DNA from: Nitrososphaerales archaeon
Lineage (GTDB): Archaea > Thermoproteota > Nitrososphaeria > Nitrososphaerales > Gagatemarchaeaceae
Direction: 5' to 3'
Assembly: GCA_032906705.1 (NCBI GenBank)
Contig: JAJTZC010000001.1
Location: 9,464-73,463, forward strand
DNA length: 64,000 nucleotides
Position numbers and translations under genes: made by a program. Position 1 is the first letter of the stretch. Every line of letters begins with the position of its first letter. Positions 10,411 through 48,453 of this stretch are shown here, piece by piece. Below the pieces are notes generated by a model. The model was not told the origin of the DNA, did no database searches, and saw only the letters and a list, made by a program, of their open reading frames with translations.

Positions 10411-10423
10411 AGAATCAAAGTAA

Positions 10424-30088: not shown

Positions 30089-31021
30089 TTAGGGCTTCCT
30101 AGATGCCAGGGCGCGCCGTAGGGCTGGGACTATCTGATACAGGTCACCGACAACGCCATAATCGGCAGCCTGGAAGATGGGGGCGTCCTTGTCCGAGTTA
30201 ATCGCAGCGATTATCCTGGAGTCCTTGATGCCCGCGACATGCTGGAGCTGACCCGAAATACCCACGGCCAGATAGAGGTCTGGGCGCACAGTCACTCCTG
30301 ATAAGCCGATGTGACACTCCTCCGGCAACCATCCGAGGTCTGAGGAGAGAGGGCGCGAGCACCCGACCGCTCCACCGAGCTCTTGAGCAAGGCCTTCAAT
30401 CATGGGGAGGTCCTCCTTTCTCCTAATCCCCCTTCCTACCGACACTATGATCTTTGCGCTCTTCAAGTCAACGGCGCCGACCTGTTTCTTCGTGGTTTGG
30501 AGCAGCCTGACCTTCGAAGAGATCTCGCCCACGTCCAACTCTTCCACAGCTGAGGGTCCGGCAGCGGCGGGCGAGTATGCCCCGAGCATAACCGTAGCAA
30601 CGCACGGTAGCGGAGTGCTCATTTTGGCGAGCACCTTCCCCGCGAACACGTTCCGCTCTCCGACAAGCATCTGACCCGAGATTGCGAAACGGAAGGCGTC
30701 GCTCATGCAGCCTGTCCCCAGCTTCGTCGCAAGCCTCGAGGCTATCTCCTTCCCCTGCTTCGTCGCGCTGACGAGTATCACAGAGGGGCTCAACTTCTTC
30801 GCGGCGCGGTAGATTGCCTCGGCCACTACCTCAGGAAGGGAGGATGCAGTCGAACCGCTCCTGAGGACGAGCTTCTTCCTGGTCCTGACTCCGGTCCTCG
30901 CCTGCCCGAACTCAACTACTACCGCCTCGCCCCCGACCGAGTCTGCGATGCTGGTCGCAGCTTCGGAAACCTCGTTTGCATGGTCATCTGATTCGGAGTA
31001 GGACCAGACCAGTACACTCAT
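30089..31021 (-). CDS. etfA: electron transfer flavoprotein alpha subunit
   Basis: C-terminal FAD-binding pattern: IVSVGRGI...GCSRPL...GLSGVTVRPDLYLAVGISGQLQHVAGI...IIAINSDKDAPIF. Confidence 0.9.
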   Translation of the reverse strand: MSVLVWSYSESDDHANEVSEAATSIADSVGGEAVVVEFGQARTGVRTRKKLVLRSGSTASSLPEVVAEAIYRAAKKLSPSVILVSATKQGKEIASRLATKLGTGCMSDAFRFAISGQMLVGERNVFAGKVLAKMSTPLPCVATVMLGAYSPAAAGPSAVEELDVGEISSKVRLLQTTKKQVGAVDLKSAKIIVSVGRGIRRKEDLPMIEGLAQELGGAVGCSRPLSSDLGWLPEECHIGLSGVTVRPDLYLAVGISGQLQHVAGIKDSRIIAAINSDKDAPIFQAADYGVVGDLYQIVPALRRALASRKP

Positions 31022-31788
31022 TTTTGGAGTACACCCTCCGATGCAAGAGCGTCGACCAGCTTCTTGGCCGCCTCCTCCGGCGTTCCCTCGATAACGAGAT
31101 GTCTTCTGTTCATCGCCTGTGCGCTCATCGAGATTACCCCCACGTTTCCACCTGAGAGGCCTGCTGGTCCTAGCGTTTCCAAGGTCACGTCCTGGACGGG
31201 CTTCTTCGCAGCCTGCATTATCTGGATCAGTGTCGGGTACCTCGGTTCGTTGATTTCACTGACCACGGAGACAACAAAAGGGAGGGGACACTCGACGGAC
31301 CTGAGGCTCTCCTCGAGCGATTGCTCCACCTTTGCGACCCCTGTCGAGATTTCTATCTTCCTTGCGTACCCGACATACGGGAGTGCAAGAAGCTCGCCCA
31401 ACATGGGGGGAACCTGACCTGTATAGCTGTCCGAGGACCCTTCGGCACAGATCACTACCTCAAATGTTCCCGCCCACCTGATGGCAGCTGCCAGTGCGCG
31501 TGCGGTCCCCAGCGAGTCCATCGTTCCCAGCTCGGCGAGCACGTGGACAGCCCCGTCAGCCCCCATCGCGAGCGCCTCCTTGAGCGTCTTCTTGGCGTCC
31601 GGGCTCCCCACTGTGAATATGACGACCTCGCCGCCGTGAGCCGACTTCATCCGCACGGCCTCCTCGACCGCGTTCTTGTCGAACGTGCTCATCTTCGAGG
31701 GCGCCCCCGCCAAGATAGGCTTCCCTTCTTGGTCAGTCCTGAGCTCGGATTCGTCCACTGCATGCTTGACGCAGACAGCTATCCTCAA
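31018..31788 (-). CDS. etfB: electron transfer flavoprotein beta subunit
   Basis: (M)RIAVCVKHAVDES... N-terminus when started at the TTG that overlaps the ACAD stop (TTGA). The longest ORF (to 31878) adds an implausible Arg-rich leader. ATGA overlap with etfA. Confidence 0.9.
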   Translation of the reverse strand: MRIAVCVKHAVDESELRTDQEGKPILAGAPSKMSTFDKNAVEEAVRMKSAHGGEVVIFTVGSPDAKKTLKEALAMGADGAVHVLAELGTMDSLGTARALAAAIRWAGTFEVVICAEGSSDSYTGQVPPMLGELLALPYVGYARKIEISTGVAKVEQSLEESLRSVECPLPFVVSVVSEINEPRYPTLIQIMQAAKKPVQDVTLETLGPAGLSGGNVGVISMSAQAMNRRHLVIEGTPEEAAKKLVDALASEGVLQK

Positions 31789-32981
31789 AGCGACCGGGCC
31801 AGCTCCTTCCTCGCGATCAAGAGCCTGAGGACCTCGGAGGTCCCCTCGCCGATCGTGAGCAACCTGGCGTCGCGCCAATGCCTGTGAATGTCGTCCGTCG
31901 TGTAGCCGTACCCTCCGAAGATCTGGATGGCCGCATCGCAGACGCGGAGTGACATTTCGGTCGAGAAGACTTTGGCCTGCGAGGCCTCCGAAGAGAAGTC
32001 AGCTCTCGATTCGCGGAGCCGCGCCGCATGCATGCACAGGAGCCTCCCCGCCGTGATCCCTGTTTTCATGTCAGCGATTTTTTCCTGAGTCAGCTGGAAC
32101 TCGGAGATGGCGGACCCGAACGCCTTTCGCTGCTTGCTGTAGGCGAGCGCCTTGTCGAAAGAAGCCTGCGCGATCCCGACGCAGATGGAACCCATCACTA
32201 TCCTGCTGCCGTTCAGCATCGCCTTCGCGTAATCGAAACCCTTGCCCTCTTCGCCCACCAGCATCTCTCGAGGCACCTTGCAGTCGGTGAACCTGACCTC
32301 GGAGGTCCTGGACCCTCGCATCCCCAACTTTGCGATGTCTCCGCCGAACTGAATCCCTGGGACAGTCTTCTCCACCAGGAAGCTTGATGGCCCCTTCTCG
32401 GTGGTTGCGAAGACGAAGTAAATGTCAGCCTCCCCCGCGTTCGTGATGTACATCTTGGAGCCGTTCAGGACGTATTCACCTCCGCTCTTCTTCGCCCTGG
32501 TGTTCATCGCCTTCGCATCCGACCCCGACGTGGGCTCGGTGAGGCTGAACGAGGCCAGCCTCCTGCCAGCTATGATGTCGGCGAGGAATTCCTTCTTGAG
32601 CGCCTCCGAGCCAAACTGACTGAGCCCCTCGGCAGCCGTGTTGTGAATCCCGATGCTGAGCGCTATGCTGGCGTCCGCGGCGCCCAAGAGCTCCATCGCA
32701 AGGTCGTAGACGCCGAAGGGGAGCCCCAGGCCTCCATATTGCGCTGGGTAGGCGATCTGAACGATACCGTTATCGAGGAGGGTCTTCCGCGCGGACTGAA
32801 TCGTCTTGGTTTTGGAGTCGAAATCCGGCGAGCTCGGAGCAACTTGGCGCTCCAGGAGGGTACCGATGGAGGAGAGTAGGCCGGCGTACTCTTCGTGTTC
32901 TGAGTAGTTGAACTTCAGGATCTGCCTGTGCTCTGTTCTGAAAAGGACCAAGTAACTCCAGCCGCGCTGACTTTGGGCCAA
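31785..32981 (-). CDS. acyl-CoA dehydrogenase
   Basis: Typical ACAD pattern (FSLTEPTSGSDA, YITNAG, GGYGYTTDDIHRHWRDARLLTIGEGTSEV). The start is probably the TTG at 32951, given a TTAAATTT box at 32982-32990. Confidence 0.9.
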   Translation of the reverse strand: MAQSQRGWSYLVLFRTEHRQILKFNYSEHEEYAGLLSSIGTLLERQVAPSSPDFDSKTKTIQSARKTLLDNGIVQIAYPAQYGGLGLPFGVYDLAMELLGAADASIALSIGIHNTAAEGLSQFGSEALKKEFLADIIAGRRLASFSLTEPTSGSDAKAMNTRAKKSGGEYVLNGSKMYITNAGEADIYFVFATTEKGPSSFLVEKTVPGIQFGGDIAKLGMRGSRTSEVRFTDCKVPREMLVGEEGKGFDYAKAMLNGSRIVMGSICVGIAQASFDKALAYSKQRKAFGSAISEFQLTQEKIADMKTGITAGRLLCMHAARLRESRADFSSEASQAKVFSTEMSLRVCDAAIQIFGGYGYTTDDIHRHWRDARLLTIGEGTSEVLRLLIARKELARSL

Positions 32982-33045: not shown

Positions 33046-34416
33046 GTGGCACTCGCCGACGTGCTGGCTGATTACTTCTACTCCGTGAGGTACTCTGACC
33101 TCGATGCTCGAACGGTGAAGGAAACGAAAAGGCGTCTAATTGACTCCTTGGGCTGCGCCCTCGGAGCGTTCAAGGAGAGACCCGTCAGAATTGCAAGGAG
33201 AGCGGTCGCTGGTGTGACTTCGGGCAAGCCAGCGACCCTGTTGGGCACGAAGACGAGAACCAGCGCAGACCTCGCCGCGTTCGTCAACGGACTCATGATA
33301 CGTTATTTTGACTTCAACGACACGTACCTCTCAAGGGAGCCAGCCCACCCGAGCGACAACATTGGAGCGACCCTCTCGGTAGCGGAATCCGAGGGGAGTT
33401 CAGGGAGGGAACTAATTCTCGCCACGGTCATGGCATACGAAGTCCAGTGCAGGTTCGCGGATGCAGCGGACCTCAGGCACAGGGGATGGGACCACGTCAA
33501 CTACGGCCTCGTCTCGACCACCCTCGCGGCCAGCAGACTGATGGGCTCGACCAAAGAGAAGGCTGCACAGGCAGTGAACATCGCTCTCAACTCTCACTTA
33601 GCGATGAGGCAGGTCAGGGCTGGTGCCCTGTCCATGTGGAAGGGCGCCTCGTTTGCCAACGCGGCCCGGAACGGGGTCTTCTCTGCGAGGCTGGCTGGAC
33701 AGGGAATGACGGGCCCTTCGCCTGTCTTCGAAGGCGAGATGGGCTTCTTCAAACAGGTCTCGGGAGAGTTCGTCCTTGACCCCTCGTCCTTCGGCGGAGA
33801 TGGCGCGCCGTTCAAGATTGGGGAGACCTACATCAAGTATTGGCCGGCCGAGTACCATGCGCAGACAGCAATCTGGGCTGCGCTCGAGCTTCGCAAGAGA
33901 ATCGCGGATCCCACCCTAATCGAGTCGGTCCGCGTCGAGACTCATGAGGCCGGCTACACCATCTTGGGAAAGGACCCAGAGAAATGGAACCCTAAGACAA
34001 AGGAGACTGCGGACCACAGCCTTCCATTCATCGTCGCGACCGCACTCCTTGATGGCAAGGTGGGGAACTCGAGTTACTCTACGCGGAAACTTGCTGACGA
34101 GCGGACGCTCGGCCTGGCCCGAAGGGTCGCGGTGACGGAAGACGCTAGGCTCACGGAACTCTATCCGGACAGGGGCATGGGGAACAGGATTACGGTTACC
34201 ATGAAGGGAGGTGGTGCTCTGGCCGCCGAATCGATCATGCCACGCGGGCATCCGGGAAACCCGATGAGCGACGAGGAGGTCGAGGCGAAATTCATGTCCC
34301 TGACTAGGAAATCGCTGGGCGATGACAGGGCGAGGAAGGCTATTAATCTAATCTGGGCCTTGGACGAGTCCACGGACCTCGCGCGCCTTATCTCCTCGCT
34401 GGTCGTCCGCAAATAG
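33046..34416 (+). CDS. MmgE/PrpD-family protein (2-methylcitrate dehydratase-like)
   Basis: N-terminus LADYFYSVRYSDLDARTVKETKRRLIDSLGCALGAF and a 456-aa length typical of the family. Confidence 0.85.
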   Translation: MALADVLADYFYSVRYSDLDARTVKETKRRLIDSLGCALGAFKERPVRIARRAVAGVTSGKPATLLGTKTRTSADLAAFVNGLMIRYFDFNDTYLSREPAHPSDNIGATLSVAESEGSSGRELILATVMAYEVQCRFADAADLRHRGWDHVNYGLVSTTLAASRLMGSTKEKAAQAVNIALNSHLAMRQVRAGALSMWKGASFANAARNGVFSARLAGQGMTGPSPVFEGEMGFFKQVSGEFVLDPSSFGGDGAPFKIGETYIKYWPAEYHAQTAIWAALELRKRIADPTLIESVRVETHEAGYTILGKDPEKWNPKTKETADHSLPFIVATALLDGKVGNSSYSTRKLADERTLGLARRVAVTEDARLTELYPDRGMGNRITVTMKGGGALAAESIMPRGHPGNPMSDEEVEAKFMSLTRKSLGDDRARKAINLIWALDESTDLARLISSLVVRK

Positions 34417-38089: not shown

Positions 38090-39223
38090 GTGCGAAGTGC
38101 AGTGACCGACAGAGTCGGCATAGTCGGGGTCGGGTACGAGGGCTTCCGCCCGTCCTTGGCTGACCTTTCTACGAGGGAGCTGATGTATCAGGCAGCGTCG
38201 AAGGCATACCTCGACGCAGGCGTCGACCCGAGAAAGGACATCGGCTCCTTCATCTGTTGTACGGAGGACCTCTGGGAGGGGTGGAGCATAGCTGATGAGA
38301 TGGTACCGGACCAGATCGGCGGGGCCCGGAGGCCCGTCTGCACAGTGCCGGCTGATGGGATAACCGGGATAGGACACGCGATCATGCACATAAGGTCAGG
38401 AGTGGCAGACGTCGTTTCGGTCGAGGCGCACAGCAAGGTGGCCGACGTGCTCGACAAGACGGCAGTTGAGAACCTCGCCCTTGACCCCGCCTTCCTCAGG
38501 GTCCCGGGTGCCAACAACGACGTGCTCGCGGGACTGGAGATGAGCGCTTTCATGAAGAGCCGTGGTGTTGGGAGGGAGGAACTAAGCCGGCTGGTGGCAG
38601 CTGAGAAGGCCGCTTCGGTCTCGAATCCCCGAGCAAGTTACGGCGCGAGACTCACGCCTGCTGAGGTCAGTGGTGCTGAACCGATTTCTGCCCCGCTGCG
38701 TAGGTACGATAAGGCCGAGTACGCAGAAGCGGGAATCGTCATCGTGCTTGCTTCTGAACAATGGATCAGGCGGAAGAGGAAGGATGCGGTCCGCGTTGAC
38801 GGCTTGGCCTGGCGCTCCTCGACGCCTTGGTACGAGGGCGGGGAGGTCGGGTTCGCGAGATACGCAACGGACGCCTTCAATGCGGCGAAGAAACAGGCGC
38901 GCCTCAGGAGCCTCGATTCCGTCGACCTGTTCGAAGTGGACGACACCTACTCGTACAAGCTGATGCAGCACCTTCTCTCCATCGGAGTTAGCAAGTCGAG
39001 CGCATTGGCCTTGAGCAGGAGGGGGGCGCTCAACCCTAGCGGCGGTTCTCTAGGCGTCGGGAACCTCATAGAGGCCACGGGCCTGCACCGGGTGCTCGAA
39101 TGTGTAATCCAACTCCGAGGTGAGGCAGGGAGGAACCAGGTGAAGGGTGTGAGGAAGGCGGTCGCGCTTTCGTGGAGGGGTAACCCCACAGCGACAGGAG
39201 CCGCGGCGGTGCTCTCGATATGA
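38090..39223 (+). CDS. thiolase-fold (SCP2-thiolase-like) protein lacking the canonical nucleophile Cys and catalytic His
   Basis: ...RPVCTVPADGITGIGHAIMHIRSG has Pro87 where ACASG Cys is expected. NPSGGSLGVGNLIEATG...QLRGEAG has GN in place of GHP. Confidence 0.8.
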   Translation: MRSAVTDRVGIVGVGYEGFRPSLADLSTRELMYQAASKAYLDAGVDPRKDIGSFICCTEDLWEGWSIADEMVPDQIGGARRPVCTVPADGITGIGHAIMHIRSGVADVVSVEAHSKVADVLDKTAVENLALDPAFLRVPGANNDVLAGLEMSAFMKSRGVGREELSRLVAAEKAASVSNPRASYGARLTPAEVSGAEPISAPLRRYDKAEYAEAGIVIVLASEQWIRRKRKDAVRVDGLAWRSSTPWYEGGEVGFARYATDAFNAAKKQARLRSLDSVDLFEVDDTYSYKLMQHLLSIGVSKSSALALSRRGALNPSGGSLGVGNLIEATGLHRVLECVIQLRGEAGRNQVKGVRKAVALSWRGNPTATGAAAVLSI

Positions 39224-40377
39224 AGAAGGTCGCCGTCATCGGTGCGGGAATGACGAAGTTCAGGAGGAGGATGCTTGAGACTGGGAGGGAGCTATCCTTC
39301 GGGGCAAGCAGGATGGCCCTCGACTCGGCCGGGATGGAGATCAAAGACGTGGAATCCGTGGTGATGGGCACAGCGCCCGACGCCTTCGACGGCGTTCACA
39401 TGAAAGGCGAGTACTTGATGGACGGCGCTGGCGGGACCAACAAGCCGTACAGCAGGGTCTACGTGGGCGGGGGCACGGGAGTCTTCGTCCCCGTGGCTGG
39501 ATGGTGGCACGTCGCGTCAGGCCTCTTTGACACATGTCTCGTGGTCGGAGAAGAGAAGATGTCGCCCCTGCAGCCCCATCCGCAGTACGCCTTCTGGAGC
39601 ATCTTCGACCACACACTCGAGAGGCCCCTGGGCGTCAACCTCCTTTGGATCTTCTCGCTCGAGATGAGGCGGTACATGTCGGTGTACAACGTGAAAGAGG
39701 AGGACATCGCGCTGGTGTCCGTCAAGAACAAGGGTAACGCGATGGACCACCCGTGCGCTCAGCTGCCCGCTAGGATCACAGTCGACGACGTGATGAAGAG
39801 CGAACCGATCTGCCTTCCTGTGAAGAGGTTGGACGTGTCACCGACCTCGGACGGGGCGGCGGCTTTGGTTCTCGCTTCTGAGGACGTCGCGAAGAAGTAC
39901 ACCGACGACCCGGTCTGGATCGACGGCGTGGGCTGGAACGTCGACACCCAGTACTGGACAAACCGGGACCTGTACTATCCCAGGTACGTAGAGCAGGCGG
40001 CGAGGATGGCATATTCGATGGCCAAGATCGACAACCCGAAGAAGCAGATAGATTTCGCAGAGGTCTACGATCCATTCGACTACAAGGAGCTTCATCACCT
40101 GGAAGGCGTTCTGCTAGCAGACAAAGGGCAGGCTCCGACGATGACCAAGGAAGGGATTACACAGCGGGACGGCGACCTTCCTGTCAACCCGTCGGGAGGA
40201 CTGCTGGGAGTCGGAAACCCCATTGCCGCTGCGGGCACCATGAAGGTCTGCGAGCTATTCTGGCAGCTGAGGGGCGAAGCGGGGAAGAGGCAGGTCAAGA
40301 AGGAGGTCCACAGAGGTCTGGCACAGGCTTGGGGCGATTTACTTCAGTGTGGAACAGTCATCACGATGAAAAGGTAG
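39220..40377 (+). CDS. second thiolase-fold (SCP2-thiolase-like) paralog, also without canonical Cys/His
   Basis: RVYVGGGTGVFVPVAGWWHVASG...VVGEEKMS has Gly84 at the Cys position. NPSGGLLGVGNPIAAAG...CELFWQLRGEAGKRQV has GNP in place of GHP. ATGA overlap with the upstream paralog. Confidence 0.8.
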   Translation: MKKVAVIGAGMTKFRRRMLETGRELSFGASRMALDSAGMEIKDVESVVMGTAPDAFDGVHMKGEYLMDGAGGTNKPYSRVYVGGGTGVFVPVAGWWHVASGLFDTCLVVGEEKMSPLQPHPQYAFWSIFDHTLERPLGVNLLWIFSLEMRRYMSVYNVKEEDIALVSVKNKGNAMDHPCAQLPARITVDDVMKSEPICLPVKRLDVSPTSDGAAALVLASEDVAKKYTDDPVWIDGVGWNVDTQYWTNRDLYYPRYVEQAARMAYSMAKIDNPKKQIDFAEVYDPFDYKELHHLEGVLLADKGQAPTMTKEGITQRDGDLPVNPSGGLLGVGNPIAAAGTMKVCELFWQLRGEAGKRQVKKEVHRGLAQAWGDLLQCGTVITMKR

Positions 40378-40390
40378 CGCGACCAAGCGT

Positions 40391-42361
40391 TTGGTGGAAT
40401 TAGCCTCAGACAGGCTGCTCTGGACGCCGGACGAGGGGAGGGTCCGCAAGGCGAACATCACGACATACCTGGACTGGCTCGCAAAGCAAGGCATGAGATT
40501 TGAGGGTTACGGCGAGCTGTGGCAGTGGTCTGTGGACAGCGTCGAGGAATTTTGGCAGTCAATCTGGGACTACTTCGACGTCATCCATGAAGGCAAGTAC
40601 TCCAAGGTACTATCGTCTAGGCTAATGCCGGGAGCAAAGTGGTTCAAAGGAGCGCGCCTGAACTTTGCTGAGCAAGTCTTCAGGAATAGACAGGAGGGCC
40701 CGGCTCTGATATCGAGGGCCGAGGACGGGGAGCTGAGGACCATCGGCTGGGGAGAGCTCCGGAAGATGACCGCCTCCTTGTCGGCAAACCTGACTCGGAT
40801 GGGAGTGAAGAAGGGCGACAGGGTCGCGGCCTACCTGGCGAACTCGGTCGAGGCGGTGGTCTCCCTCTTGGCGTGTGCAAGCGTCGGCGCTGTCTGGTCG
40901 AGCTGTTCGCCCGAATTCGGCGCCCCTAGCGTGGTCGACAGGCTGGGCCAAATCGGCCCAAGGGTCCTCATCGCTGCAGAGGGTTACAGGTATGGCGGTG
41001 AATGGCACGACAGGAATGGGGCGCTGGACTCAATATTGTCGGCCCTTCCAACGGTGAAGAAGGTCGTCGTCGTCAGGAAAAAGTCTGAACGGAAACGGAA
41101 GGGAGAGGTGGATTGGGCGGACGCAGTCTCGGGCAGGGCGAAGCTAGAGTTCGAGCGAGTGCCGTCGAGGCATCCACTCTGGATTCTGTACTCGTCTGGG
41201 ACGACCGGGCTACCAAAGCCAATCGTCCAGGGGCACGCGGGAATCCTCCTCGAACACCTGAAAGAACTTTCTCTCCACAACGACTTGAAGGCAGGCGACC
41301 GTTTCTTCTGGTTCACTACTACGGGCTGGATGATGTGGAACTACCTGGTGGGGGGCCTTCTGCACCACTCGACAGCCGTGCTTTACGACGGAAGCCCAGG
41401 AATCCCAGACATGAACGCGCTCTGGGACCTGGTCGAAGAGACCGAGGTCTCATTCATGGGGGTGAGCGCCGCCTTCGTCAACGGATGCATGAAAGCAGGA
41501 ATCAAGCCTGGCGCTAACCACGACCTGACGAACTTGACGGGCCTCGGCTCCACGGGCTCGCCCCTGTCGGGGGAGGCATTCGAATGGGTCTACGGGAATG
41601 TGAAGTCCGACCTCTGGCTCGCATCCATCAGCGGCGGCACTGACGTGTGTACGGCCTTCGTTGGCGGCCTCCCGACTCTCCCGGTCTACTCTGGCGAGAT
41701 CCAATGCAGATGCCTGGGCGCGAAGGTCGAATCTTTTGACGAGGAAGGGAGGAGCGTCGTGGGAAAGGTTGGTGAGCTCGTCGTGACTGCGCCGATGCCG
41801 AGCATGCCGCTCTATTTCTGGGGAGACAAGGACGGGGCAAGGTACAGGGAGAGCTACTTCGGCATGTTCCCAGGCGTCTGGAGACATGGCGACTGGATAG
41901 AGGTAACTGCCCGAGGCTCCTGCGTGATATTCGGTCGGTCGGACGCAACCATCAAGAGGATGGGAGTCAGGATCGGCACTTCGGAGATCTACAGGGCGAT
42001 GGAGGGGATACCAGAGGTGGCAGACAGCCTGGCTCTCGACCTGGAAGGACTTGGGGGAAGGTCCGTAATGCTTCTCTTTGTCGTACCAGAAAAAGGCGTG
42101 AGCCTGGACCAGGAACTCTCGGAGCGGATCAAAGACACACTGAGACGTGACCTTTCACCGAGGCACGTCCCCGACCTCGTCGTGCAAGTAAGGAGCGTGC
42201 CACGGACCCTGAACGGGAAGAAGCTAGAAGTCCCGGTCCGCAGGATCTTCGCCGGTGGAAAGCCCGAAGAGGTGCTCAACAGGGACTCGCTCTCCGACCC
42301 CGCCTCTGTCGATGAATACGTCGTACTCGCGGAACGGTTCAGGAGAGATGGGAAACTTTGA
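40391..42361 (+). CDS. acetoacetyl-CoA synthetase-like acyl-CoA ligase (AMP-forming)
   Basis: LWTPDEGRVRKANITTYLDWL...WQWSVDSVEEFWQSIWDYF N-terminus typical of acetoacetate-CoA ligase. YSSGTTGLPK AMP-binding motif. 656 aa. Confidence 0.85.
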   Translation: MVELASDRLLWTPDEGRVRKANITTYLDWLAKQGMRFEGYGELWQWSVDSVEEFWQSIWDYFDVIHEGKYSKVLSSRLMPGAKWFKGARLNFAEQVFRNRQEGPALISRAEDGELRTIGWGELRKMTASLSANLTRMGVKKGDRVAAYLANSVEAVVSLLACASVGAVWSSCSPEFGAPSVVDRLGQIGPRVLIAAEGYRYGGEWHDRNGALDSILSALPTVKKVVVVRKKSERKRKGEVDWADAVSGRAKLEFERVPSRHPLWILYSSGTTGLPKPIVQGHAGILLEHLKELSLHNDLKAGDRFFWFTTTGWMMWNYLVGGLLHHSTAVLYDGSPGIPDMNALWDLVEETEVSFMGVSAAFVNGCMKAGIKPGANHDLTNLTGLGSTGSPLSGEAFEWVYGNVKSDLWLASISGGTDVCTAFVGGLPTLPVYSGEIQCRCLGAKVESFDEEGRSVVGKVGELVVTAPMPSMPLYFWGDKDGARYRESYFGMFPGVWRHGDWIEVTARGSCVIFGRSDATIKRMGVRIGTSEIYRAMEGIPEVADSLALDLEGLGGRSVMLLFVVPEKGVSLDQELSERIKDTLRRDLSPRHVPDLVVQVRSVPRTLNGKKLEVPVRRIFAGGKPEEVLNRDSLSDPASVDEYVVLAERFRRDGKL

Positions 42362-42899
42362 AATCCGCATGCGGGGCCGGAGTGAAGCGAGCTTGAGCTC
42401 GAAGATACCGCACTATCCCGGCACGGAGATTGGACCCTCGGACCTGGCGGCCCACAAGTATCTCATCACTGAATACGAGACGGTACTGAGGTACTCATGG
42501 ACGTCCGGCGTGGCGATCGGGAGGTTCCTTCGGGGGCTCAAGGACGGTGAGCTGTGGGCCAGGAAGTGCAACGGGTGCGGGAGGACCTTAATCCCTCCTC
42601 GGATGTACTGCGAAGAGTGCTTCAGGCCGACAGACTCGTGGGTGAAGGTCAAGAGCACGGGCACTATCACGACCTTCTCGATCAGCTATGTGAACGTCGA
42701 CGCGAGCAGGAGAAGCGAACCGATTCTCGTTTCGGTGATAGAGATAGAGGGGGCCTCCCCGAACATGGGGATACTCCACGTTCTGGGCGAGGTAGCACCC
42801 AAGGACATCTTCGTGGGCATGAAGGTCGAAGCTGTCTGGAAACCGGCGACAGAGCGCGAAGGAGCGATAACCGATATCAGGTACTTCAGGCCGAGGTGA
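42348..42899 (+). CDS. DUF35 (zinc-ribbon plus OB-fold) protein 1
   Basis: RKCNGCGRTLIPPRMYCEECF ribbon and an OB-like C-terminus. The start is at ATG 42348 (overlapping the ligase end) or ATG 42369. Confidence 0.75.
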   Translation: MGNFEIRMRGRSEASLSSKIPHYPGTEIGPSDLAAHKYLITEYETVLRYSWTSGVAIGRFLRGLKDGELWARKCNGCGRTLIPPRMYCEECFRPTDSWVKVKSTGTITTFSISYVNVDASRRSEPILVSVIEIEGASPNMGILHVLGEVAPKDIFVGMKVEAVWKPATEREGAITDIRYFRPR

Positions 42900-42903
42900 A
42901 GCT

Positions 42904-43365
42904 GTGCCCCTAAACGAAAGGATAACCAAAGTGGATGAATTCCGGGCCTGGACCGACAAGATTCCACTCCGTTACGAGTACACCGCGGGTGTAGCAGGGG
43001 AGAAGTTCCTCCGCGGGCTGCAAGAAGGGAAGATCCTTGCCGGGAAGTGCCCGAAGTGCGGGAAGAGCTTCCTGCCTCCCAAGATGTATTGTGTTGACTG
43101 TTTCGTTCCAATCAAGGAGTATAGGGAGGTCGGGCTCGAGGGGAGAGTGGGCGCCCTTACGGAGAGCCACGTAGACTTCAACGGAAACAAACTGGGCAGC
43201 CCAATCGCGATAGCCTTCGTCGCATTTGCTGGTGTGACCGGTGGGCTCATACACAGGGTCGAGGGGGAAGGTCTGAGGATAGGCACCAAGGTGGCGGCGA
43301 GGTTCGTACCGCGGCCGGCCAGAAAAGGTTCCCTTCTGGATATCGAGAAGTTCGTCCAGGCCTAG
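42904..43365 (+). CDS. DUF35 (zinc-ribbon plus OB-fold) protein 2
   Basis: GKCPKCGKSFLPPKMYCVDCF ribbon and an OB-like C-terminus. GTG start 4 nt after the upstream stop. Confidence 0.8.
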   Translation: MPLNERITKVDEFRAWTDKIPLRYEYTAGVAGEKFLRGLQEGKILAGKCPKCGKSFLPPKMYCVDCFVPIKEYREVGLEGRVGALTESHVDFNGNKLGSPIAIAFVAFAGVTGGLIHRVEGEGLRIGTKVAARFVPRPARKGSLLDIEKFVQA

Positions 43366-44288
43366 GGCTTCACGTAGGTCAACCAGTTCTGGTAGCGCTT
43401 GTTCTTGCCGTGGACTACTTCGGTGTAGAGCTTTTTCATCTTGTCGGCGACGGGATACGCGCCGTTTCCTATCTTCCGCCCATCGACCTCCGCGATCTTG
43501 GCCACGCCGGCGGCCGTGCCGGTGAAGAACAGTTCGTCGGAGGTGTAAAGCTCTTCCCTGGTCGAATCGTTCCTGTAGAATGTGATGCCAAGGTCGCGGG
43601 CGAATTGGATGATTGTGTCCCTGGTAATCCCCCTGAGGATGCCTGAGCTGGCAGGCGGGGTGCTCAACACATTGTCCTTCACTCGGAATATGTTCTCCCC
43701 GGGCCCTTCGGCCACCATCCCCACGCTGTTGAGTATGATCGCTTCGTCGTAGCCGCCCGCCATAGCTTCCATCTTTGCAAGAGCGGAGTTCGCGTAGTTC
43801 GCTGAGCATTTCGCCTGCGGCGGAAGCGCGCGGGAGTCCATGCGTACCCAGCTTGACACACTGGCTCTCACTCCCTTCGAGGACGCCTCCTCGCCGAGAT
43901 AGGCCCCCCACTCCCAAAGGGCTATTGCGACAGACACCTTGTTCTTGAGAGGGTTCAATCCCATGGCTCCGTATGAAGTGAATGCAAGCGGCCGGATGTA
44001 TGCCTCTGCAAGCCCGTCCTTTCGAACGAGTTCAATGCATGCCTCCGCGATTTCCTTCTGGGAGAAGCCGAGTTGCATGCGATAGATCTTTGCGCTGTTC
44101 AAGAAGCGTTCGAGGTGCGAGTCTAGCCTGAATATTGCTGGCCCCTTCTTTGTCGAAAAATACCGTATCCCCTCGAATATGGCCATTCCGTAGTGGAGAC
44201 CGTGTGTCAGCACGTGTATCTTCGCGTCGTCCCAGTCGACGAACTTCCCGTCCATCCAAATCTTGCTGAGCGCCTTCATGCGCGTCAA
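43362..44288 (-). CDS. ilvE: branched-chain amino acid aminotransferase
   Basis: IWMDGKFVDWDDAKIHVLTHGLHYGMAIFEGIRYF and overall class IV aminotransferase pattern. Confidence 0.9.
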   Translation of the reverse strand: MTRMKALSKIWMDGKFVDWDDAKIHVLTHGLHYGMAIFEGIRYFSTKKGPAIFRLDSHLERFLNSAKIYRMQLGFSQKEIAEACIELVRKDGLAEAYIRPLAFTSYGAMGLNPLKNKVSVAIALWEWGAYLGEEASSKGVRASVSSWVRMDSRALPPQAKCSANYANSALAKMEAMAGGYDEAIILNSVGMVAEGPGENIFRVKDNVLSTPPASSGILRGITRDTIIQFARDLGITFYRNDSTREELYTSDELFFTGTAAGVAKIAEVDGRKIGNGAYPVADKMKKLYTEVVHGKNKRYQNWLTYVKP

Positions 44289-44344
44289 TTCGTGGCCCGA
44301 ATTTCATGCTATTTAGACATAGAGTTTGGCTGCGATACGCGCCG

Positions 44345-44352
44345 TTTATTAT
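44345..44352 (+). promoter_or_regulatory. TATA-like box (TTTATTAT) 25 nt upstream of the thiolase ATG at 44377
   Basis: Read directly. Supports the shorter (392-aa) thiolase start. Confidence 0.4.
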
Positions 44353-44376
44353 CGAGCTGTGCCTGACTCGGCGACT

Positions 44377-45555
44377 ATGACCCGCCCTGTGATTCTTTCG
44401 GCCTGCCGGACAGGAATTGGCAAGTTCGGGCGGAGCCTCGTCAATGTCGCGGCGCCAAGGCTGGGCGCTGTCACGATTCGGGAAGCAATGAGGCGGGCTC
44501 GCGTCAGACCCGCGGAAGTCGATGAGGTCGTCATGGGGAACGTCGTCTCCGCCGGCCTCGGACAGAACCCCGCCAGGCAGGCAGCAATCTACGCCGGCGT
44601 CCCGACGTCCGTGGGAGCGTTCACGGTGAACAAGGTCTGCGGGTCAGGACTCAAGGCAGTCATGCTCGCCGCGCAGTCTGTGAAGGCAGGAGACAACGAA
44701 GTCGTTGTCGCGGGAGGAATGGAGAACATGAGCAACACGCCGTACCTTGTGAGGAACTTGAGGTGGGGGCTGAAGTACGGTCACGCAAAGCTCCTCGATT
44801 CTATGATTGTGGACGGCCTCTGGGACGCCTACAAGGACTACCATATGGGGGTGACCGGAGAGTTGATCGCAAAGAAATACCGGGTGACGCGGAAGGAGGC
44901 AGACGAGTTCGCCTACCAGAGCCATATGAGGGCTGCCAAGGCTTCCAAGAGCGGCAGGTTTGATGACGAAATCGTGAAGGTGGAGATTGAAAGGGAAGGC
45001 GGGGAGGTAGGTTCCTTCGGCGCGGACGAATGCGTAAGACCGGACACGACGTTGGAGAAGCTCTCGAAGCTCAGACCAGTCTTCAAGGAAGGCGGAGTCC
45101 TGACGGCCGGGAACTCGTCCCAGCTCAGCGACGGCGCTTCCGCTCTGGTTGTTGCCACGGAGGAGGCCGCGGAGAGGCTGGGGGTCAAGCCGCTGGCAAG
45201 AATCAAGGCGTACGGGACCGGAGGACTGGCTCCGGAGCGGGTGATGGAGGCCCCGATCCCGACCACCAAGGCCCTGCTCAAGAGGGTCAAGATGGACGCG
45301 GGCGACATCGACCTTTTCGAGCACAACGAAGCGTACTCGACCGCATCAATCGCGGTCCGAAGGGCGTTGGGAATCGATGATGACAGGTTCAACGTGAACG
45401 GCGGGGCCGTGGCTCTGGGTCACCCGATAGGCTGCAGCGGCTCCCGAGTCCTGACCACGCTGATCTACGAAATGCGCAGGAGCGGGAAGAGGACTGGCCT
45501 CGCAACCCTCTGCCTCGGCGGGGGCAACGCAGTGTCTATGATCGTTGAGAGGTAG
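44377..45555 (+). CDS. acetyl-CoA C-acetyltransferase (canonical thiolase II)
   Basis: VNKVCGSGLKAVMLAAQSVKAG (nucleophile Cys), NGGAVALGHPIGCSGSR (His, Cys) and CLGGGNAVSMIVER. Confidence 0.9.
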   Translation: MTRPVILSACRTGIGKFGRSLVNVAAPRLGAVTIREAMRRARVRPAEVDEVVMGNVVSAGLGQNPARQAAIYAGVPTSVGAFTVNKVCGSGLKAVMLAAQSVKAGDNEVVVAGGMENMSNTPYLVRNLRWGLKYGHAKLLDSMIVDGLWDAYKDYHMGVTGELIAKKYRVTRKEADEFAYQSHMRAAKASKSGRFDDEIVKVEIEREGGEVGSFGADECVRPDTTLEKLSKLRPVFKEGGVLTAGNSSQLSDGASALVVATEEAAERLGVKPLARIKAYGTGGLAPERVMEAPIPTTKALLKRVKMDAGDIDLFEHNEAYSTASIAVRRALGIDDDRFNVNGGAVALGHPIGCSGSRVLTTLIYEMRRSGKRTGLATLCLGGGNAVSMIVER

Positions 45556-47227
45556 GCTCTCTGAGCTTTCGCCGGAGGACCTTACCTATGAGCGTCTTCG
45601 GCAGGTCTGGGACGAACTCGACCCTCTTTGGGACCTTGAACTTCGCCAGCTTGGGGGAGCAGAACTCGATGACCTCCTTCTCCGAGACCTTCGCGGTTGG
45701 GTCTTTCAACACCACGTATGCCCTCACGACCTCCCCGCTGAAGCTGTCCGGCATGCCGATGACCGCAGCCTCCTTGATTGCCGGATGCTCGAAGAGGACC
45801 TCTTCCACCTCCCTGGGATAGACCTTCATCCCCCCGACGTTAATCATGTCCTTCTTGCGGTCGACGATGAAGAAATATCCTTCCTCGTCCATCTTTCCGA
45901 TGTCGCCGGTCAGAAGCCAGCCATTGTGCAGGGCCAACCGAGACTCGCCGTCCATCTTCCAATACCCTTTCATCACTTGGGGCCCCTTCACCGCCAGCTC
46001 GCCGATTTCGCCTGTCTTCAGGATCTTGTCCGGGTTGTCCAAGTCTACCACGGTGACGTCGGTCTCCGGGAAGGGCAGTCCTATGGACCCGTCTTTGACC
46101 TTCCCGTCGCGGACTGGGTTGCAATGAGTGACCGGGCTCGCCTCCGAGAGCCCGTACCCCTCGACAAGGTTGCCGCCAGTCAGCTCGATGAACTTCTTCC
46201 TTACAGCAACCGGCAGTGCCGCTCCCCCAGAGATGCACGCCCTCACAGAACGGAGGTTGAAGTGCTTGACCTTCGGATTGTTGATTATTGCCACGTACAT
46301 CGCGGGGACCGCGCAGAAGCTTGTCACCCGCTGCTTCTCTATGGTCTTCATGACTTCCTCGACGTGGAACTGCGGGAGCAGGACGATTCGGGCCCCCGCG
46401 CTGAGAGGCGCGTTCATTGTTGCAGTGATTCCATAGATGTGGTAGAGCGGCAGGACTGCCAGAGCGACGTCGGACTCCGTGACAGGGAGCGCCATCGCAG
46501 TGTAGATGGCGTTCGAGTAGAGATTGTAATGGGTGAGCATCGCCCCCTTCGATACGCCGGTCGTCCCGCCGGTGTACTGGAGGAGGGCCAGGTCGTTCAG
46601 CGGGTCGACTTCGGGCCTCGCCTCCAGCGGCCCATGTGTCCTAATCAATGAAACAAAGTCCTCGGTGTTGGGTCTTGCAACGTTGCGCACCCTGGCCAGC
46701 CTGGCCAGCCTCTTCTTCAAGGGAGGAAGGTAGTCTGTGACGCTCGTCGAGATCACGTGCGGGAGGTCGAGTCTTCCTCTGCAGCTTGCAAGGCTCAGGA
46801 AGAGGTCGTTCCCCTTCACGACATCTCTTGCCGCTATCACAATCGAGCTCCCAGAGTCCCTTAGCTGGTGCTCGAGTTCCCTCTCCTTATACAGCGGGCT
46901 GCACGTGACCACCACCCCGCCGGCCATGAGTATCCCGAAGTACGCGATGACGAACTGGGGGATATTGGGTAGGAAGATCGCGACCCTGTCGCCCCTCTTC
47001 AGCCCGAGCGAAACTAGGGCGGAAGCGAACCTGGACGCCAGATCGTCAACCCTGCCGTAGGTTATTTCCCTTCCCTGGTAGTGGAGGCAGACGGCGTCAG
47101 GGTGCTTCGCCGCTGAATCCGTAAGGAGGGCGTAGAGCGGTTTCCTCTCGATGATTGTATCCGGGTTGAACTGCTTGGGCCAGGACTTCAGCCAAGGACG
47201 TTCTACTTGCAAAGCCCGACGTTCCAT
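45536..47227 (-). CDS. long/medium-chain fatty acid-CoA ligase
   Basis: Starts at MERRALQVERPWLKSWPKQ. LQYTGGTTGVSKGA AMP-binding motif and GWLLTGDIGKMDEEGYFFIVDRKKD. The upstream 86 aa of the longest ORF are Arg/Pro-rich and were rejected. Confidence 0.85.
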   Translation of the reverse strand: MERRALQVERPWLKSWPKQFNPDTIIERKPLYALLTDSAAKHPDAVCLHYQGREITYGRVDDLASRFASALVSLGLKRGDRVAIFLPNIPQFVIAYFGILMAGGVVVTCSPLYKERELEHQLRDSGSSIVIAARDVVKGNDLFLSLASCRGRLDLPHVISTSVTDYLPPLKKRLARLARVRNVARPNTEDFVSLIRTHGPLEARPEVDPLNDLALLQYTGGTTGVSKGAMLTHYNLYSNAIYTAMALPVTESDVALAVLPLYHIYGITATMNAPLSAGARIVLLPQFHVEEVMKTIEKQRVTSFCAVPAMYVAIINNPKVKHFNLRSVRACISGGAALPVAVRKKFIELTGGNLVEGYGLSEASPVTHCNPVRDGKVKDGSIGLPFPETDVTVVDLDNPDKILKTGEIGELAVKGPQVMKGYWKMDGESRLALHNGWLLTGDIGKMDEEGYFFIVDRKKDMINVGGMKVYPREVEEVLFEHPAIKEAAVIGMPDSFSGEVVRAYVVLKDPTAKVSEKEVIEFCSPKLAKFKVPKRVEFVPDLPKTLIGKVLRRKLREPTSQRS

Positions 47228-47319
47228 CGCAGGCGCGTCATCCCTTAAGCGTATCTGCCCGGCCCTTGAAAGTGTGAGAATCGGCTCTAACCTTAAGTAT
47301 CGTCGGCTGAAGTTCGGGC

Positions 47320-48453
47320 TTGTCGAATTTGGCCGCCCAGCCTGAAAGGTACATCGTGCTTTGCGTGGACAGGGACGACGACCTCGGAGTGAAGGCAAAG
47401 GTCCCGAGTCCCGTGGTCGGAAGGGACGCGGTCGTTGCGGCAGCGACCAAGCTCGCCCTCGCCGACCCGGAGGAGGCTGACGCAAACGCGGTTTTTGCCT
47501 CCGTGAAGAAGTATGACGAACTCGTCGCAGAGGGAATCGCGTGCGATGTCGCAGTGGTCTGCGGGAACAAGGAGAGGGGCTTCGCTGCAGACAGGAAGGT
47601 GAGGAAGGAAGTTGAGGGGCTGCTGAAGGAACTGGAGTTTGTCGGGATAGTCTTCGTGTCGGACGGGGGCGACGATGAACAGGTCATGCCCATACTACAG
47701 AACATCAAACCGATAGTCTCGGTGGAAAGGGTCGCTGTCAAGTACAGCCAGACTGTTGAAGAAACCTACCTGGTGCTGGGCAGGTACCTTAGGATGCTCG
47801 TCTTCGACCCCAGGTATTCCCGGTGGTCGCTCGGCGTGCCAGGGATCATCCTGCTCCTTGCGGGGATCCTCGTCGTTACAAACAACCTGCTGGCGGCCCA
47901 GCTCGCGACTCTGCTGATAATCGGAGGTGCTGCCTTCGTTCGCGGGTTCAGCCTTGACAGGACCATCGCCGGGCTTCTGAGCAGGAGCCCCTACGGCTAC
48001 ATCAGGCTCTTCTCCGCGGTCACTGGGCTGCTCGTGATCCTCGTGGCCCTCACGTCGGGCTTTGACTTCATGGAGGCGCAGGCAGGCAACCTTGTCGCCC
48101 AGGTCTCGGCCCAGCCTTCGCTCTTCCTCACCTACGGTTCAGCGCTGACGGGCTACTTCATCAGCGGCTCTCTTCTGCTCGTATGGGCTGGCGTCGCCAT
48201 CGGCGCGGTGGGGTCCCTCCTTTCGCATGTAGCCAGGGACAGCGCGCGTTGGAGGCGAGATGCCTTCGTCCTGGTGATGCTGGCGCTGCTTTACTTCCCG
48301 GTTGACACCTTCTCGGCGTTCCTGATAAGAGGTCAGAGCGAGTCCACTTTCCTGCTCGTCTCATACGTCCTTCTCGGGCTCGCTATGATATTCGGACTCA
48401 CAGTCGCAGTCTACCCGCGAGTCAGGATAAGACCGGCGGCTGAACGGGAGTAG
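47320..48453 (+). CDS. DUF373-family archaeal membrane protein
   Basis: YIVLCVDRDDDLGVKAKVPSPVVGRDAVVAAATKLALADPEEADANAVFASVKKYDEL...VSDGGDDEQVMPILQ pattern plus C-terminal TM helices. Confidence 0.65.
   Translation: MSNLAAQPERYIVLCVDRDDDLGVKAKVPSPVVGRDAVVAAATKLALADPEEADANAVFASVKKYDELVAEGIACDVAVVCGNKERGFAADRKVRKEVEGLLKELEFVGIVFVSDGGDDEQVMPILQNIKPIVSVERVAVKYSQTVEETYLVLGRYLRMLVFDPRYSRWSLGVPGIILLLAGILVVTNNLLAAQLATLLIIGGAAFVRGFSLDRTIAGLLSRSPYGYIRLFSAVTGLLVILVALTSGFDFMEAQAGNLVAQVSAQPSLFLTYGSALTGYFISGSLLLVWAGVAIGAVGSLLSHVARDSARWRRDAFVLVMLALLYFPVDTFSAFLIRGQSESTFLLVSYVLLGLAMIFGLTVAVYPRVRIRPAAERE

Follow-up and report, generated by a model that had tools for sequence, protein, structure and literature searches.

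Described systems

The bacterial complexes Ltp2-ChsH2 (6ok1) and Sal-Shy (9myr), which act in steroid side-chain degradation, consist of a homodimeric SCP2-type thiolase fold that lacks the nucleophilic Cys and of an obligatory DUF35 partner. An archaeal gene cassette with comparable components is described here. It is found at positions 38090–43365 of a 64,000 nucleotide (nt) stretch of a Nitrososphaerales archaeon genome (GenBank GCA_032906705.1, contig JAJTZC010000001.1, positions 9,464–73,463 of the forward strand; the whole stretch is termed the window). The open reading frames (ORFs) of the cassette encode two SCP2-type thiolase-fold proteins (ORF1 and ORF2), an AMP-forming ligase (ORF3) and two DUF35 proteins (DUF35a and DUF35b). 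ORF1, ORF2, DUF35a and DUF35b very probably represent a conserved four-component SCP2-thiolase-fold/DUF35 module that is not a thiolase: the thiolase catalytic residues are all lost, there is an invariant replacement signature, the four genes are syntenic and natural fusions are found.

In Sal, a Gly is present at the position of the nucleophilic Cys (CtSal; PMC12329534). The catalytic base is a Tyr that replaces the His of the HDCF motif (Y302DCY in Sal and Y294DHF in Ltp2), the general acid is Cys304 in Sal and Tyr344 in Ltp2, and Gln352 is the Sal equivalent of Tyr344. Both complexes are arranged as DUF35-thiolase-thiolase-DUF35 (PMC12329534). The trypanosomatid protein TbSLP (PDB 5ab4-5ab7) has the motif Y297DCF, and the same paper equates the HDCF, YDCF, YDCY and YDHF motifs; TbSLP was recently proposed to be an aldolase (PMC12329534).

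The archaeal DUF35-associated thiolases are represented by 7yvy (Pyrococcus furiosus) and by 6esq, the Methanothermococcus thermolithotrophicus thiolase from the complex of thiolase, HMG-CoA synthase (HMGS; HMG, 3-hydroxy-3-methylglutaryl) and DUF35. These enzymes keep the nucleophilic Cys, the His of the HD(C/A)F motif and the His of the GHP motif, none of which is found in ORF1 or ORF2. The second large subunit of the archaeal complex is HMG-CoA synthase and there is one DUF35 type, whereas the module described here has a second SCP2-type thiolase fold and two DUF35 types. The Friedel-Crafts acyltransferases PhlACB and MucABC are multi-subunit thiolase-superfamily complexes held by DUF35 in which one subunit is catalytically inactive; the inactive subunit is similar to HMGS and ketoacyl synthase III, and the active PhlC or MucB keeps its catalytic Cys. 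ORF1 and ORF2 do not form such a pair of an HMGS/ketoacyl synthase III-like subunit and a Cys-containing subunit similar to acetyl-CoA acetyltransferase. Thus the module differs from all three complexes (archaeal mevalonate, PhlACB and MucABC) in that both large subunits are SCP2-type paralogs and both are Cys-less.

One subunit family of the module has a solved structure. SSO2064 of Saccharolobus solfataricus (PDB 3irb, Joint Center for Structural Genomics) shares its orthologous family with DUF35b and was solved alone, without partners. The SSO2064 paper describes an association with thiolases in general, with a context that pointed to PhlABC-like polyketide or lipid roles; a Cys-less pair of thiolase paralogs is not described there (PMC2954200). 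A sequence-only reading of the window had proposed that the arrangement is not a described archaeal system. This stands with respect to function, as no functional study of PRK06065/PRK06066-type proteins or of the module was found in the full-text searches that were made. It does not stand for the families themselves, which are catalogued (NCBIfam PRK06065 and PRK06066, and PDB 3irb for DUF35b) but are named merely "thiolase domain-containing protein".

The cassette and its gene families

Five co-directional ORFs with hardly any intergenic space are present on the + strand, at the coordinates given in the sequence-only reading.

38090..39223, + strand: ORF1, 377 amino acids (aa), SCP2-type thiolase fold, PRK06066-like
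39220..40377, + strand: ORF2, 385 aa, SCP2-type thiolase fold, member of NCBIfam PRK06065
40391..42361, + strand: ORF3, 656 aa, AMP-forming acetoacetate-CoA ligase by family, between ORF2 and DUF35a
42348..42899, + strand: DUF35a (ORF4), ~177-184 aa, Cys4 zinc ribbon and OB fold
42904..43365, + strand: DUF35b (ORF5), 153 aa, Cys4 zinc ribbon and OB fold, SSO2064 (PDB 3irb) family

The stop codon of ORF1 and the start codon of ORF2 overlap in an ATGA at 39220-39223, as had been noted before. Analysis by Pfam shows Thiolase_C_1 in ORF1 and Thiolase_N plus Thiolase_C_1 in ORF2. ORF2 scores 679 bits on NF004721/PRK06065, above the cut-off of 455; the best NCBIfam match of ORF1 is NF004722/PRK06066 with 393 bits, which is under the cut-off of 516. 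The thiolase fold of both is supported by phmmer matches to PDB thiolases (E-value 3.8e-47 for ORF2 and 5.4e-15 for ORF1), and the two sequences are 30% identical. The nearest homologs are annotated as proteins of Nitrososphaerales or Thaumarchaeota metagenome-assembled genomes (MAGs). The GC content of the window is ~0.59.

ORF3 displays the domains ACAS_N, AMP-binding and AMP-binding_C. It is above the cut-off on both NF002937 (940 bits, cut-off 639) and TIGR01217 (813 bits, cut-off 520.9), with residues 7-649 covered. The earlier assignment to the acetoacetate-CoA type therefore holds at the level of the family, and the substrate specificity is predicted.

DUF35a and DUF35b both show the DUF35 domains zf-ChsH2 and OB_ChsH2_C. 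The scores of DUF35a are over the cut-off for PF12172 (34.3 bits) and for PF01796 (37.8 bits); those of DUF35b are 39.2 bits for PF12172, over the cut-off, and 26.7 bits for PF01796, marginally under the cut-off of 27.1. DUF35a is also extended at its N-terminus, and its C-terminus forms a conserved tail. The longest DUF35a ORF starts with a GTG at 42255, inside ORF3; however, an ATG at 42348 or 42369 is the more likely start, because of the position of these codons near the ORF3 stop and because of the N-termini of the orthologs. A 335-aa ORF at 42910-43917 on the - strand, which is antisense to DUF35b and overlaps the neighboring aminotransferase gene ilvE, is almost certainly spurious. It is Arg/Gly-rich, which is typical of the reverse strand in high-GC DNA, and many similar ORFs are found across the region.

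Catalytic residues of ORF1 and ORF2

Residues were assigned by HMMER alignments to 7yvy and 6esq, the closest solved relatives of ORF2 (E-values 4e-47 and 6e-38). In ORF2 the nucleophilic Cys is replaced by Gly84, the HDCF motif by Y283-D-P-F and the GHP His by Asn333. The nucleophile region of ORF1 has a 3-residue deletion, and Pro87, Ala88 or Gly90 is aligned there depending on the alignment; no alignment that was made shows a Cys at this position. ORF1 also has DDTY in place of HDCF and Asn in place of the GHP His. The NPSGG and C-terminal WG loops are kept. The substitutions at the nucleophile and at the GHP His that were first read from the sequence are borne out by these alignments, which place neither Cys84 of ORF1 nor a His at a catalytic position in either protein. 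The additional loss of the HDCF His and Cys makes the case against thiolase function stronger. In a DUF35-associated thiolase, changing the His of HDxF to Tyr nearly abolishes thiolysis (PMC12960953). The thiolase at 44377-45555, approximately 1 kb away, retains all catalytic motifs, matches the Pfam thiolase domains and is above the cut-off for TIGR01930. It is thus a proper canonical control, the use that had been suggested for it.

The two paralogs are not equivalent. ORF2 orthologs have Gly/Tyr/Pro/Asn at the four sites in 81 of 81 sequences. The ORF1 family (76 sequences) on the other hand is variable: Ser/Pro/Thr/Ala/Cys at the nucleophile site, with Cys in three; Asp/His/Asn at the HDCF His site; Thr/Leu/Met and others at the HDCF Cys site; and Tyr/Asn/His/Trp at the GHP His site. 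The 26 true thiolases that neighbor the cassette in the same loci display Cys/His/Cys/His, the last site being gapped in one. ORF1 nevertheless is not simply degenerate, judging by its conservation pattern. There are 33 near-invariant residues in the family and it has motifs of its own, namely an acidic N-terminal motif (E59, D60, D69, E70, D74), D89 and E112-x-H114-x-K116.

Conservation was compared as the median identity of the window proteins to their counterparts in distant loci (L020-L080 of the survey described below). The values are 73% for ORF2, 51% for DUF35a, 42% for ORF1 and 39% for DUF35b, and 59% for the canonical thiolase; ORF2 is therefore under tighter constraint than a bona fide thiolase. 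Decay to pseudogenes is ruled out by intact ORFs in 80 loci and by an ORF2 identity of at least 69% across archaeal phyla. With the same four residues in all ORF2 orthologs, this agrees with the earlier view that the substitutions are maintained by selection. ORF1 and ORF2 are thus, on comparative grounds, non-thiolases under strong selection.

A cryptic thiolase or condensing enzyme with a shifted nucleophile was considered, since a Cys (Cys84) is found in ORF1 three residues upstream of the nucleophile site. Of the 76 orthologs, 36 have Cys and 34 have Phe at this position, and there is no invariant Cys anywhere in the ORF1 or the ORF2 family, which removes the option of a hidden nucleophile. 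With the HDCF His and the GHP His missing as well, and with thiolysis so sensitive to the HDxF His, an enzyme of this type is hardly credible.

The loss of every canonical catalytic residue from both paralogs and the variability of ORF1 at the former catalytic sites would also fit a non-catalytic role, i.e. a scaffold, an acyl-CoA- or CoA-binding module or a regulatory pseudoenzyme that organizes or modulates the true enzymes of the adjacent genes (canonical thiolase, thiolase/DUF35 pair, acyl-CoA dehydrogenase). Canonical thiolases and thiolase/DUF35 pairs are the commonest immediate neighbors of the cassette, and DUF35 proteins are documented scaffolds (PMC6996347; bioRxiv 10.1101/2024.07.05.601840). 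However Gly84, Tyr283, Pro285 and Asn333 of ORF2 are invariant in 84 sequences and the signature recurs in many more distant clusters. A dead pocket should drift as the ORF1 site has done. ORF2 also evolves more slowly than the canonical thiolase, the NPSGG and C-terminal WG loops are kept, and a non-catalytic role appears rather unlikely.

The ORF2 signature extends beyond its orthologs. In an alignment of representatives of the nearest 50%-identity clusters (P0121-P0270, of which 105 are full length, plus ORF1, ORF2 and two references), G-Y-(P/A)-N is found in ~25 of the 105 and the canonical C-H-x-H in only ~31. All that are not canonical are Cys-less, either ORF2-like with G-Y-(P/A)-N or ORF1-like and heterogeneous. 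ORF2 is therefore part of a large uncharacterised radiation of Cys-less SCP2-type proteins, and a large share of the proteins near it in sequence space that are annotated as "acetyl-CoA acetyltransferase" are, by their residues, unable to act as thiolases.

The four-gene unit and the ligase insertion

When one genome per species was scanned, ORF2 had at least 566 relatives; 80 loci (designated by L numbers) were retained. The gene order ORF1-ORF2-DUF35a-DUF35b is found in nearly all of these where the contig is long enough; only L007, which has an inverted DUF35 pair upstream, and L072 deviate from it. Synteny is thus not lost in relatives. The thiolase-fold pair has an adjacent DUF35 gene in ~75 of the 80 loci, and physical binding is predicted. 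By their names the loci come from Nitrososphaeria, Bathyarchaeia, Marsarchaeota, Geoarchaeota, Hodarchaeota (Asgard), Methanofastidiosia and "Deltaproteobacteria" MAGs.

The sequence-only reading had treated the cassette as a five-gene cluster. The survey does not support this. The acetoacetate-CoA ligase is between ORF2 and DUF35a in only 12 close Nitrososphaerales/Thaumarchaeota loci, all among L001-L018, and it is not in the module in Bathyarchaeia, Marsarchaeota, the Asgard MAG or the bacterial loci. A conserved unit of five genes is thus ruled out. By gene order, the conserved unit is ORF1-ORF2-DUF35a-DUF35b and the ligase is a lineage-specific insertion.

In three Thaumarchaeota loci the interval from ORF2 to the ligase contains an ORF of the LAGLIDADG type on the opposite strand (L011:9165-10075(-), L012:9139-10131(-) and L015:9123-9650(-)); the Pfam check was made on that of L012 (LAGLIDADG_3, E-value 3.6e-07). 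As such ORFs are homing-endonuclease-like, their presence suggests that the ORF2/ligase junction is a recent insertion site.

The ligase bears on another possible function, in which the complex would act on acetoacetyl-CoA made by the ligase, and not on a β-hydroxyacyl-CoA, as the dedicated partner of the ligase, in a non-thiolytic transformation or a condensation. The sequence-only reading had proposed such a role for the five-gene unit. Ligases of the acetyl-CoA synthetase (ACS) family are divergently adjacent to the module in Sulfolobus and Conexivisphaerales, so that, with the 12 loci where the ligase is within the operon, an association with ligases is found in more than one lineage. The Sulfolobus and Conexivisphaerales ligases however are ACS-like and not acetoacetyl-CoA synthetases (AACS). 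A ligase that is missing from the module in the other groups named above cannot define its ancestral function, and a canonical thiolase able to use acetoacetyl-CoA is encoded 1 kb away; this function is distinctly improbable.

Two MAG loci labelled Deltaproteobacteria (L079:2934-11105 and L080:704-6244) have the cassette inside a methylmalonyl-CoA mutase (MCM) operon. The order in L079 is acyl-CoA dehydrogenase, adenosyltransferase, MCM large subunit, MCM small subunit, ORF1, ORF2, DUF35a, DUF35b, MeaB. The 70% identity between ORF2 of the bacterial MAGs and the archaeal protein suggests that the module has been transferred horizontally.

In L058, a Hodarchaeota MAG, a stand-alone SCP2 sterol-carrier-like protein is encoded directly after the cassette (10256-10660(+); PF02036, E-value 1e-12) and a second SCP2-like copy is located 4 kb further on (14351-14755(+)). 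This is reminiscent of the eukaryotic SCPx fusion of thiolase and SCP2.

DUF35 proteins and natural fusions

The four zinc-ribbon Cys residues of DUF35a are conserved across 73 orthologs and those of DUF35b are invariant in 69. DUF35b is similar to 3irb_A (SSO2064; phmmer E-value 1.2e-26) and is 39% identical to its ortholog in Sulfolobus sp. E5-1-F. The cassette of the latter organism consists of genes for an acyl-CoA dehydrogenase, a PRK06066 protein (701 bits), a PRK06065 protein (846 bits), a DUF35 protein of 165 aa and a DUF35 protein of 144 aa; the two thiolase-fold genes overlap by 4 nt. The SSO2064 ortholog is the last gene of this cassette, the same position as that of DUF35b. The flanks encode ACS-family ligases and a 2-oxoacid:ferredoxin oxidoreductase. 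ORF2 is 64% identical to the Sulfolobus ortholog, which keeps the Gly, YDPF and Asn, and ORF1 is 41% identical to the Sulfolobus PRK06066 protein. SSO2061, reported as a virus-regulated protein in S. solfataricus (PMC3518317), would belong to the cassette when judged by gene numbering only.

In two proteins, P0122 (731 aa) and P0139 (562 aa, truncated at the N-terminus), one polypeptide chain carries an ORF2-like domain and, after it, DUF35a-like and DUF35b-like units. They are two independent 50%-identity cluster representatives. The ORF2-like domain displays VGGGTG, YDPF and GVGNP, and the architecture was confirmed by Pfam. The DUF35 partnership that had been proposed for the thiolase-fold pair is therefore seen both in conserved synteny and in naturally occurring ORF2-DUF35a-DUF35b fusions.

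The fusions, the intact Cys4 ribbons, the translational coupling and the strict synteny support a four-subunit assembly of ORF1, ORF2, DUF35a and DUF35b, whose physical stoichiometry is a prediction. ORF2 and DUF35a evolve slowly, and ORF1 and DUF35b evolve fast; these rate classes and the order of the fused units suggest that ORF2 may pair with DUF35a and ORF1 with DUF35b.

Proposed function

ORF2 shares several features with Sal and Ltp2. Gly is at the former nucleophile position in Sal and in ORF2 (Gly84), the position being ambiguous in ORF1. A Tyr is found in the YDxF/Y motif of all three (YDHF in Ltp2, YDCY in Sal and YDPF in ORF2), whereas ORF1 with DDTY lacks it. An amide or a Tyr replaces the GHP His, and the spacing between the motif Tyr and this replacement is 50 in each case (Y283-N333 in ORF2, Y302-Q352 in Sal and Y294-Y344 in Ltp2). 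This correspondence is derived from motif identity and spacing, not from direct alignment to 6ok1 or 9myr. TbSLP is similar to ORF2 in the Tyr of its YDCF motif (Foldseek template modeling (TM) score ~0.78), but it is eukaryotic, has no DUF35 partner and keeps the motif Cys. The analogy to an Ltp2-type retro-aldolase that had been drawn for the pair is thus strengthened for ORF2, which has both the Gly and the YDxF Tyr.

From these features we infer a chemistry, a substrate type and a physical stoichiometry for the module. The favored, though tentative, reading is that ORF2 carries out a Cys-independent C-C cleavage of a CoA thioester, of the retro-aldol type, within a heteromeric complex in β-oxidation-like catabolism. 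ORF1 and ORF2 would form a thiolase-type heterodimer in which each subunit would bear a separate DUF35 protein as a cap, as in the DUF35-thiolase-thiolase-DUF35 order of Sal and Ltp2. ORF2 would probably be the catalytic subunit, with the backbone NH of Gly84 in place of the nucleophilic Cys. Tyr283 of YDPF would act as the general base that deprotonates the β-hydroxyl of a 3-hydroxyacyl-CoA, and the Cα-Cβ bond would be broken without a covalent intermediate to give acetyl- or propionyl-CoA and a carbonyl compound. ORF1 would probably be the divergent partner of ORF2 that has lost its site and that shapes or completes the complex. The pathway would be a β-oxidation-like acyl-CoA catabolism, beside acyl-CoA dehydrogenase and electron transfer flavoprotein (ETF), canonical thiolases and methylmalonyl-CoA mutase. 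In the lineage of the Nitrososphaerales archaeon the ligase may have been recruited to re-activate a β-keto acid product (acetoacetate), e.g. from an HMG-CoA-like tertiary alcohol; alternatively it may supply the substrate, acetoacetyl-CoA. The recruited ligase thus hints at acetoacetate as product or acetoacetyl-CoA as input.

Several observations weigh against a retro-aldol cleavage by ORF2. Only two of the three Ltp2/Sal catalytic features are present, since the known general acid is absent: Pro285 takes the place of Cys304 of Sal and His296 of Ltp2, and Asn333 that of Tyr344 of Ltp2. ORF2 is more similar to archaeal thiolases (3.8e-47 to 7yvy) than to 6ok1_A (2.2e-16) or 9myr_A (2.3e-18). 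In Ltp2 and Sal the DUF35 protein is fused to a MaoC hydratase; both DUF35 proteins of the module are stand-alone, and no enoyl-CoA hydratase (of the ECH or MaoC type) is among the top 25 neighbor families in 45 loci. The association with a ligase holds for some lineages only. The active-site loops of the AlphaFold2 (AF2) model of ORF2 are unreliable, with a predicted local distance difference test score (pLDDT) of less than 50 at positions 82-84, 114-140 and 331-335. This is due to the shallow input alignment, in which the homologs are all at least 80% identical.

The model was used for fold assignment only. Its predicted TM score is 0.84 and its mean pLDDT 75. The best Foldseek matches are the archaeal thiolases 7yvy and 6esq/6et9 (TM 0.81-0.86), and the values against the Ltp2 and Sal aldolases are 0.76-0.78. 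ORF2 also scores far under the cut-off on the NCBIfam lipid-transfer-protein (Ltp) models. These comparisons place ORF2 outside the Ltp2/Sal clade. As it is nearer to the archaeal thiolases, the shared Gly and Tyr represent parallel evolution or an ancestral trait.

The module thus differs from the Ltp2/Sal-DUF35 aldolases in being heteromeric, with two different thiolase-fold proteins in place of a homodimer and with two stand-alone DUF35 proteins encoded adjacently, and in having a different acid/base set. It is found mostly in archaea, in a context unrelated to steroids.

A more specific and speculative version, to which little probability is given, is that the module is an ancient and mainly archaeal lyase for tertiary 3-hydroxyacyl-CoAs, i.e. 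a thiolase-fold analogue of HMG-CoA lyase. Such a lyase would unblock the β-oxidation of β-methyl-branched acyl-CoAs derived from leucine or isoprenoid lipids, by retro-aldol cleavage to acetyl-CoA and acetoacetate or a methyl ketone. The Asp/Glu/His cluster of ORF1 might supply a second activity, e.g. hydration, and thus create a hydratase-lyase heterodimer, and the acetoacetate-CoA ligase would recapture the released acetoacetate in this lineage.

Genomic neighborhood

The module is located in an acyl-CoA oxidation island of the window. The genes around it are as follows.

26033-28048, + strand: membrane protein of 671 aa with NarI-like, 4Fe-4S and two CCG domains
28045-28797, + strand: HpcH/HpaI-family aldolase, under all NCBIfam equivalog cut-offs
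30089-31021, - strand: ETF alpha
31018-31878, - strand: ETF beta
31785-32981, - strand: acyl-CoA dehydrogenase
33046-34416, + strand: MmgE/PrpD-family protein, under all NCBIfam equivalog cut-offs
43362..44288, - strand: class IV (branched-chain) aminotransferase, IlvE (PF01063), convergent with the cassette
44377..45555, + strand: canonical acetyl-CoA C-acetyltransferase (Thiolase_N 313 bits, Thiolase_C 139 bits, TIGR01930 456 bits with a cut-off of 240)
45536..47185, - strand: FadD-type AMP-forming acyl-CoA ligase, start uncertain, the ORF to 47485 being probably over-extended

Further genes upstream encode a major facilitator superfamily (MFS) transporter, a TrmB-type regulator, a luciferase-like oxidoreductase, UbiA and a CPBP protease. 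The aminotransferase is syntenic in six close relatives only. The FadD ORF at 45536-47485 (-) extends ~100 codons further upstream than the conserved N-terminus and into a divergent gene at 47320-48453; the gene probably begins at around 47185-47200. The 3′ ends of this ORF and of the convergent canonical thiolase (ORF 44326-45555 (+)) share 20 nt. The family of the NarI/4Fe-4S/CCG membrane protein also accompanies ETF in the related loci L008, L026 and L041, and this protein may be the link from ETF to quinone in these archaea.

Acyl-CoA dehydrogenase is encoded near the cassette in 30 of the 80 loci; in Sulfolobus its gene immediately precedes the cassette. Other recurrent neighbors are ETF, canonical thiolases and AMP-ligases, and many Bathyarchaeia have a divergent pair of a canonical SCP2-type thiolase and a DUF35 protein. 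When the two closest genes on each side were counted in 45 non-redundant loci (147 genes), thiolases (19) and acyl-CoA dehydrogenases (16) were the two commonest. Ligases of the ACS/AACS families are linked to the module in three arrangements: within the operon here, and divergently in Sulfolobus and in Conexivisphaerales.

The large subunit of methylmalonyl-CoA mutase is encoded near the cassette in 18 of the 80 loci, the small subunit in 16, MeaB in 16 and the adenosyltransferase in 13. The sequence-only reading had linked the cassette to branched-chain or ketone-body-like catabolism through IlvE, the thiolase and FadD, a setting that stays hypothetical; the neighbors that recur across lineages are canonical thiolases, acyl-CoA dehydrogenases and methylmalonyl-CoA mutase. 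As indicated by NCBIfam scores and by the RGIY/ARNTY motifs (read by eye), the mutase is of the methylmalonyl type and not a 2-hydroxyisobutyryl- or isobutyryl-CoA mutase. One of the latter type would have suggested a link with acetone degradation as in sulfate reducers (PMC8084838). That gene cluster has only one thiolase and one DUF35, and the parallel was dropped.

This context raises a further candidate function. With MCM, MeaB or adenosyltransferase genes in the neighborhood in 13-18 of 80 loci, a methylmalonyl-type mutase, and the cassette located between MCM large and MeaB in the two bacterial MAG operons, the module could be a Cys-independent decarboxylase of a malonyl-type CoA ester, e.g. 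methylmalonyl-CoA to propionyl-CoA, acting through the thioester oxyanion hole. A functional analogue is the sbm-ygfD-ygfG operon of E. coli, where a decarboxylase is encoded beside the mutase. TbSLP, with its YDCF motif, slowly decarboxylates malonyl-CoA according to work cited in PMC12329534. However CtSal, which has the same Gly/Tyr signature as ORF2, shows no malonyl-CoA decarboxylation (PMC12329534). The mutase is not in the neighborhood in the window, in Sulfolobus or in most Nitrososphaeria loci, and its adjacency elsewhere fits an enzyme that releases propionyl-CoA equally well; a decarboxylase is thus improbable.

Implications

In metabolic reconstructions of Bathyarchaeia, Thaumarchaeota, Asgard archaea and Sulfolobales, proteins with a thiolase fold and the annotation "acetyl-CoA acetyltransferase" are routinely taken for thiolases. 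Since the ORF1/ORF2 pair cannot be thiolases, such reconstructions over-count thiolases and miss a reaction. The module is widespread and ORF2 is ~70% identical between archaeal phyla and some bacteria, which is indicative of an important step in acyl-CoA metabolism that is still unassigned. The module is present in the genetically tractable Sulfolobales, and one of its subunit families has a crystal structure (3irb). If the proposed function is correct, the module would be the first heteromeric member, with two paralogs and two DUF35 proteins, of the DUF35-associated thiolase-fold enzymes, and the "repurposed thiolase" chemistry of Ltp2 and Sal would extend beyond bacterial steroid degradation.

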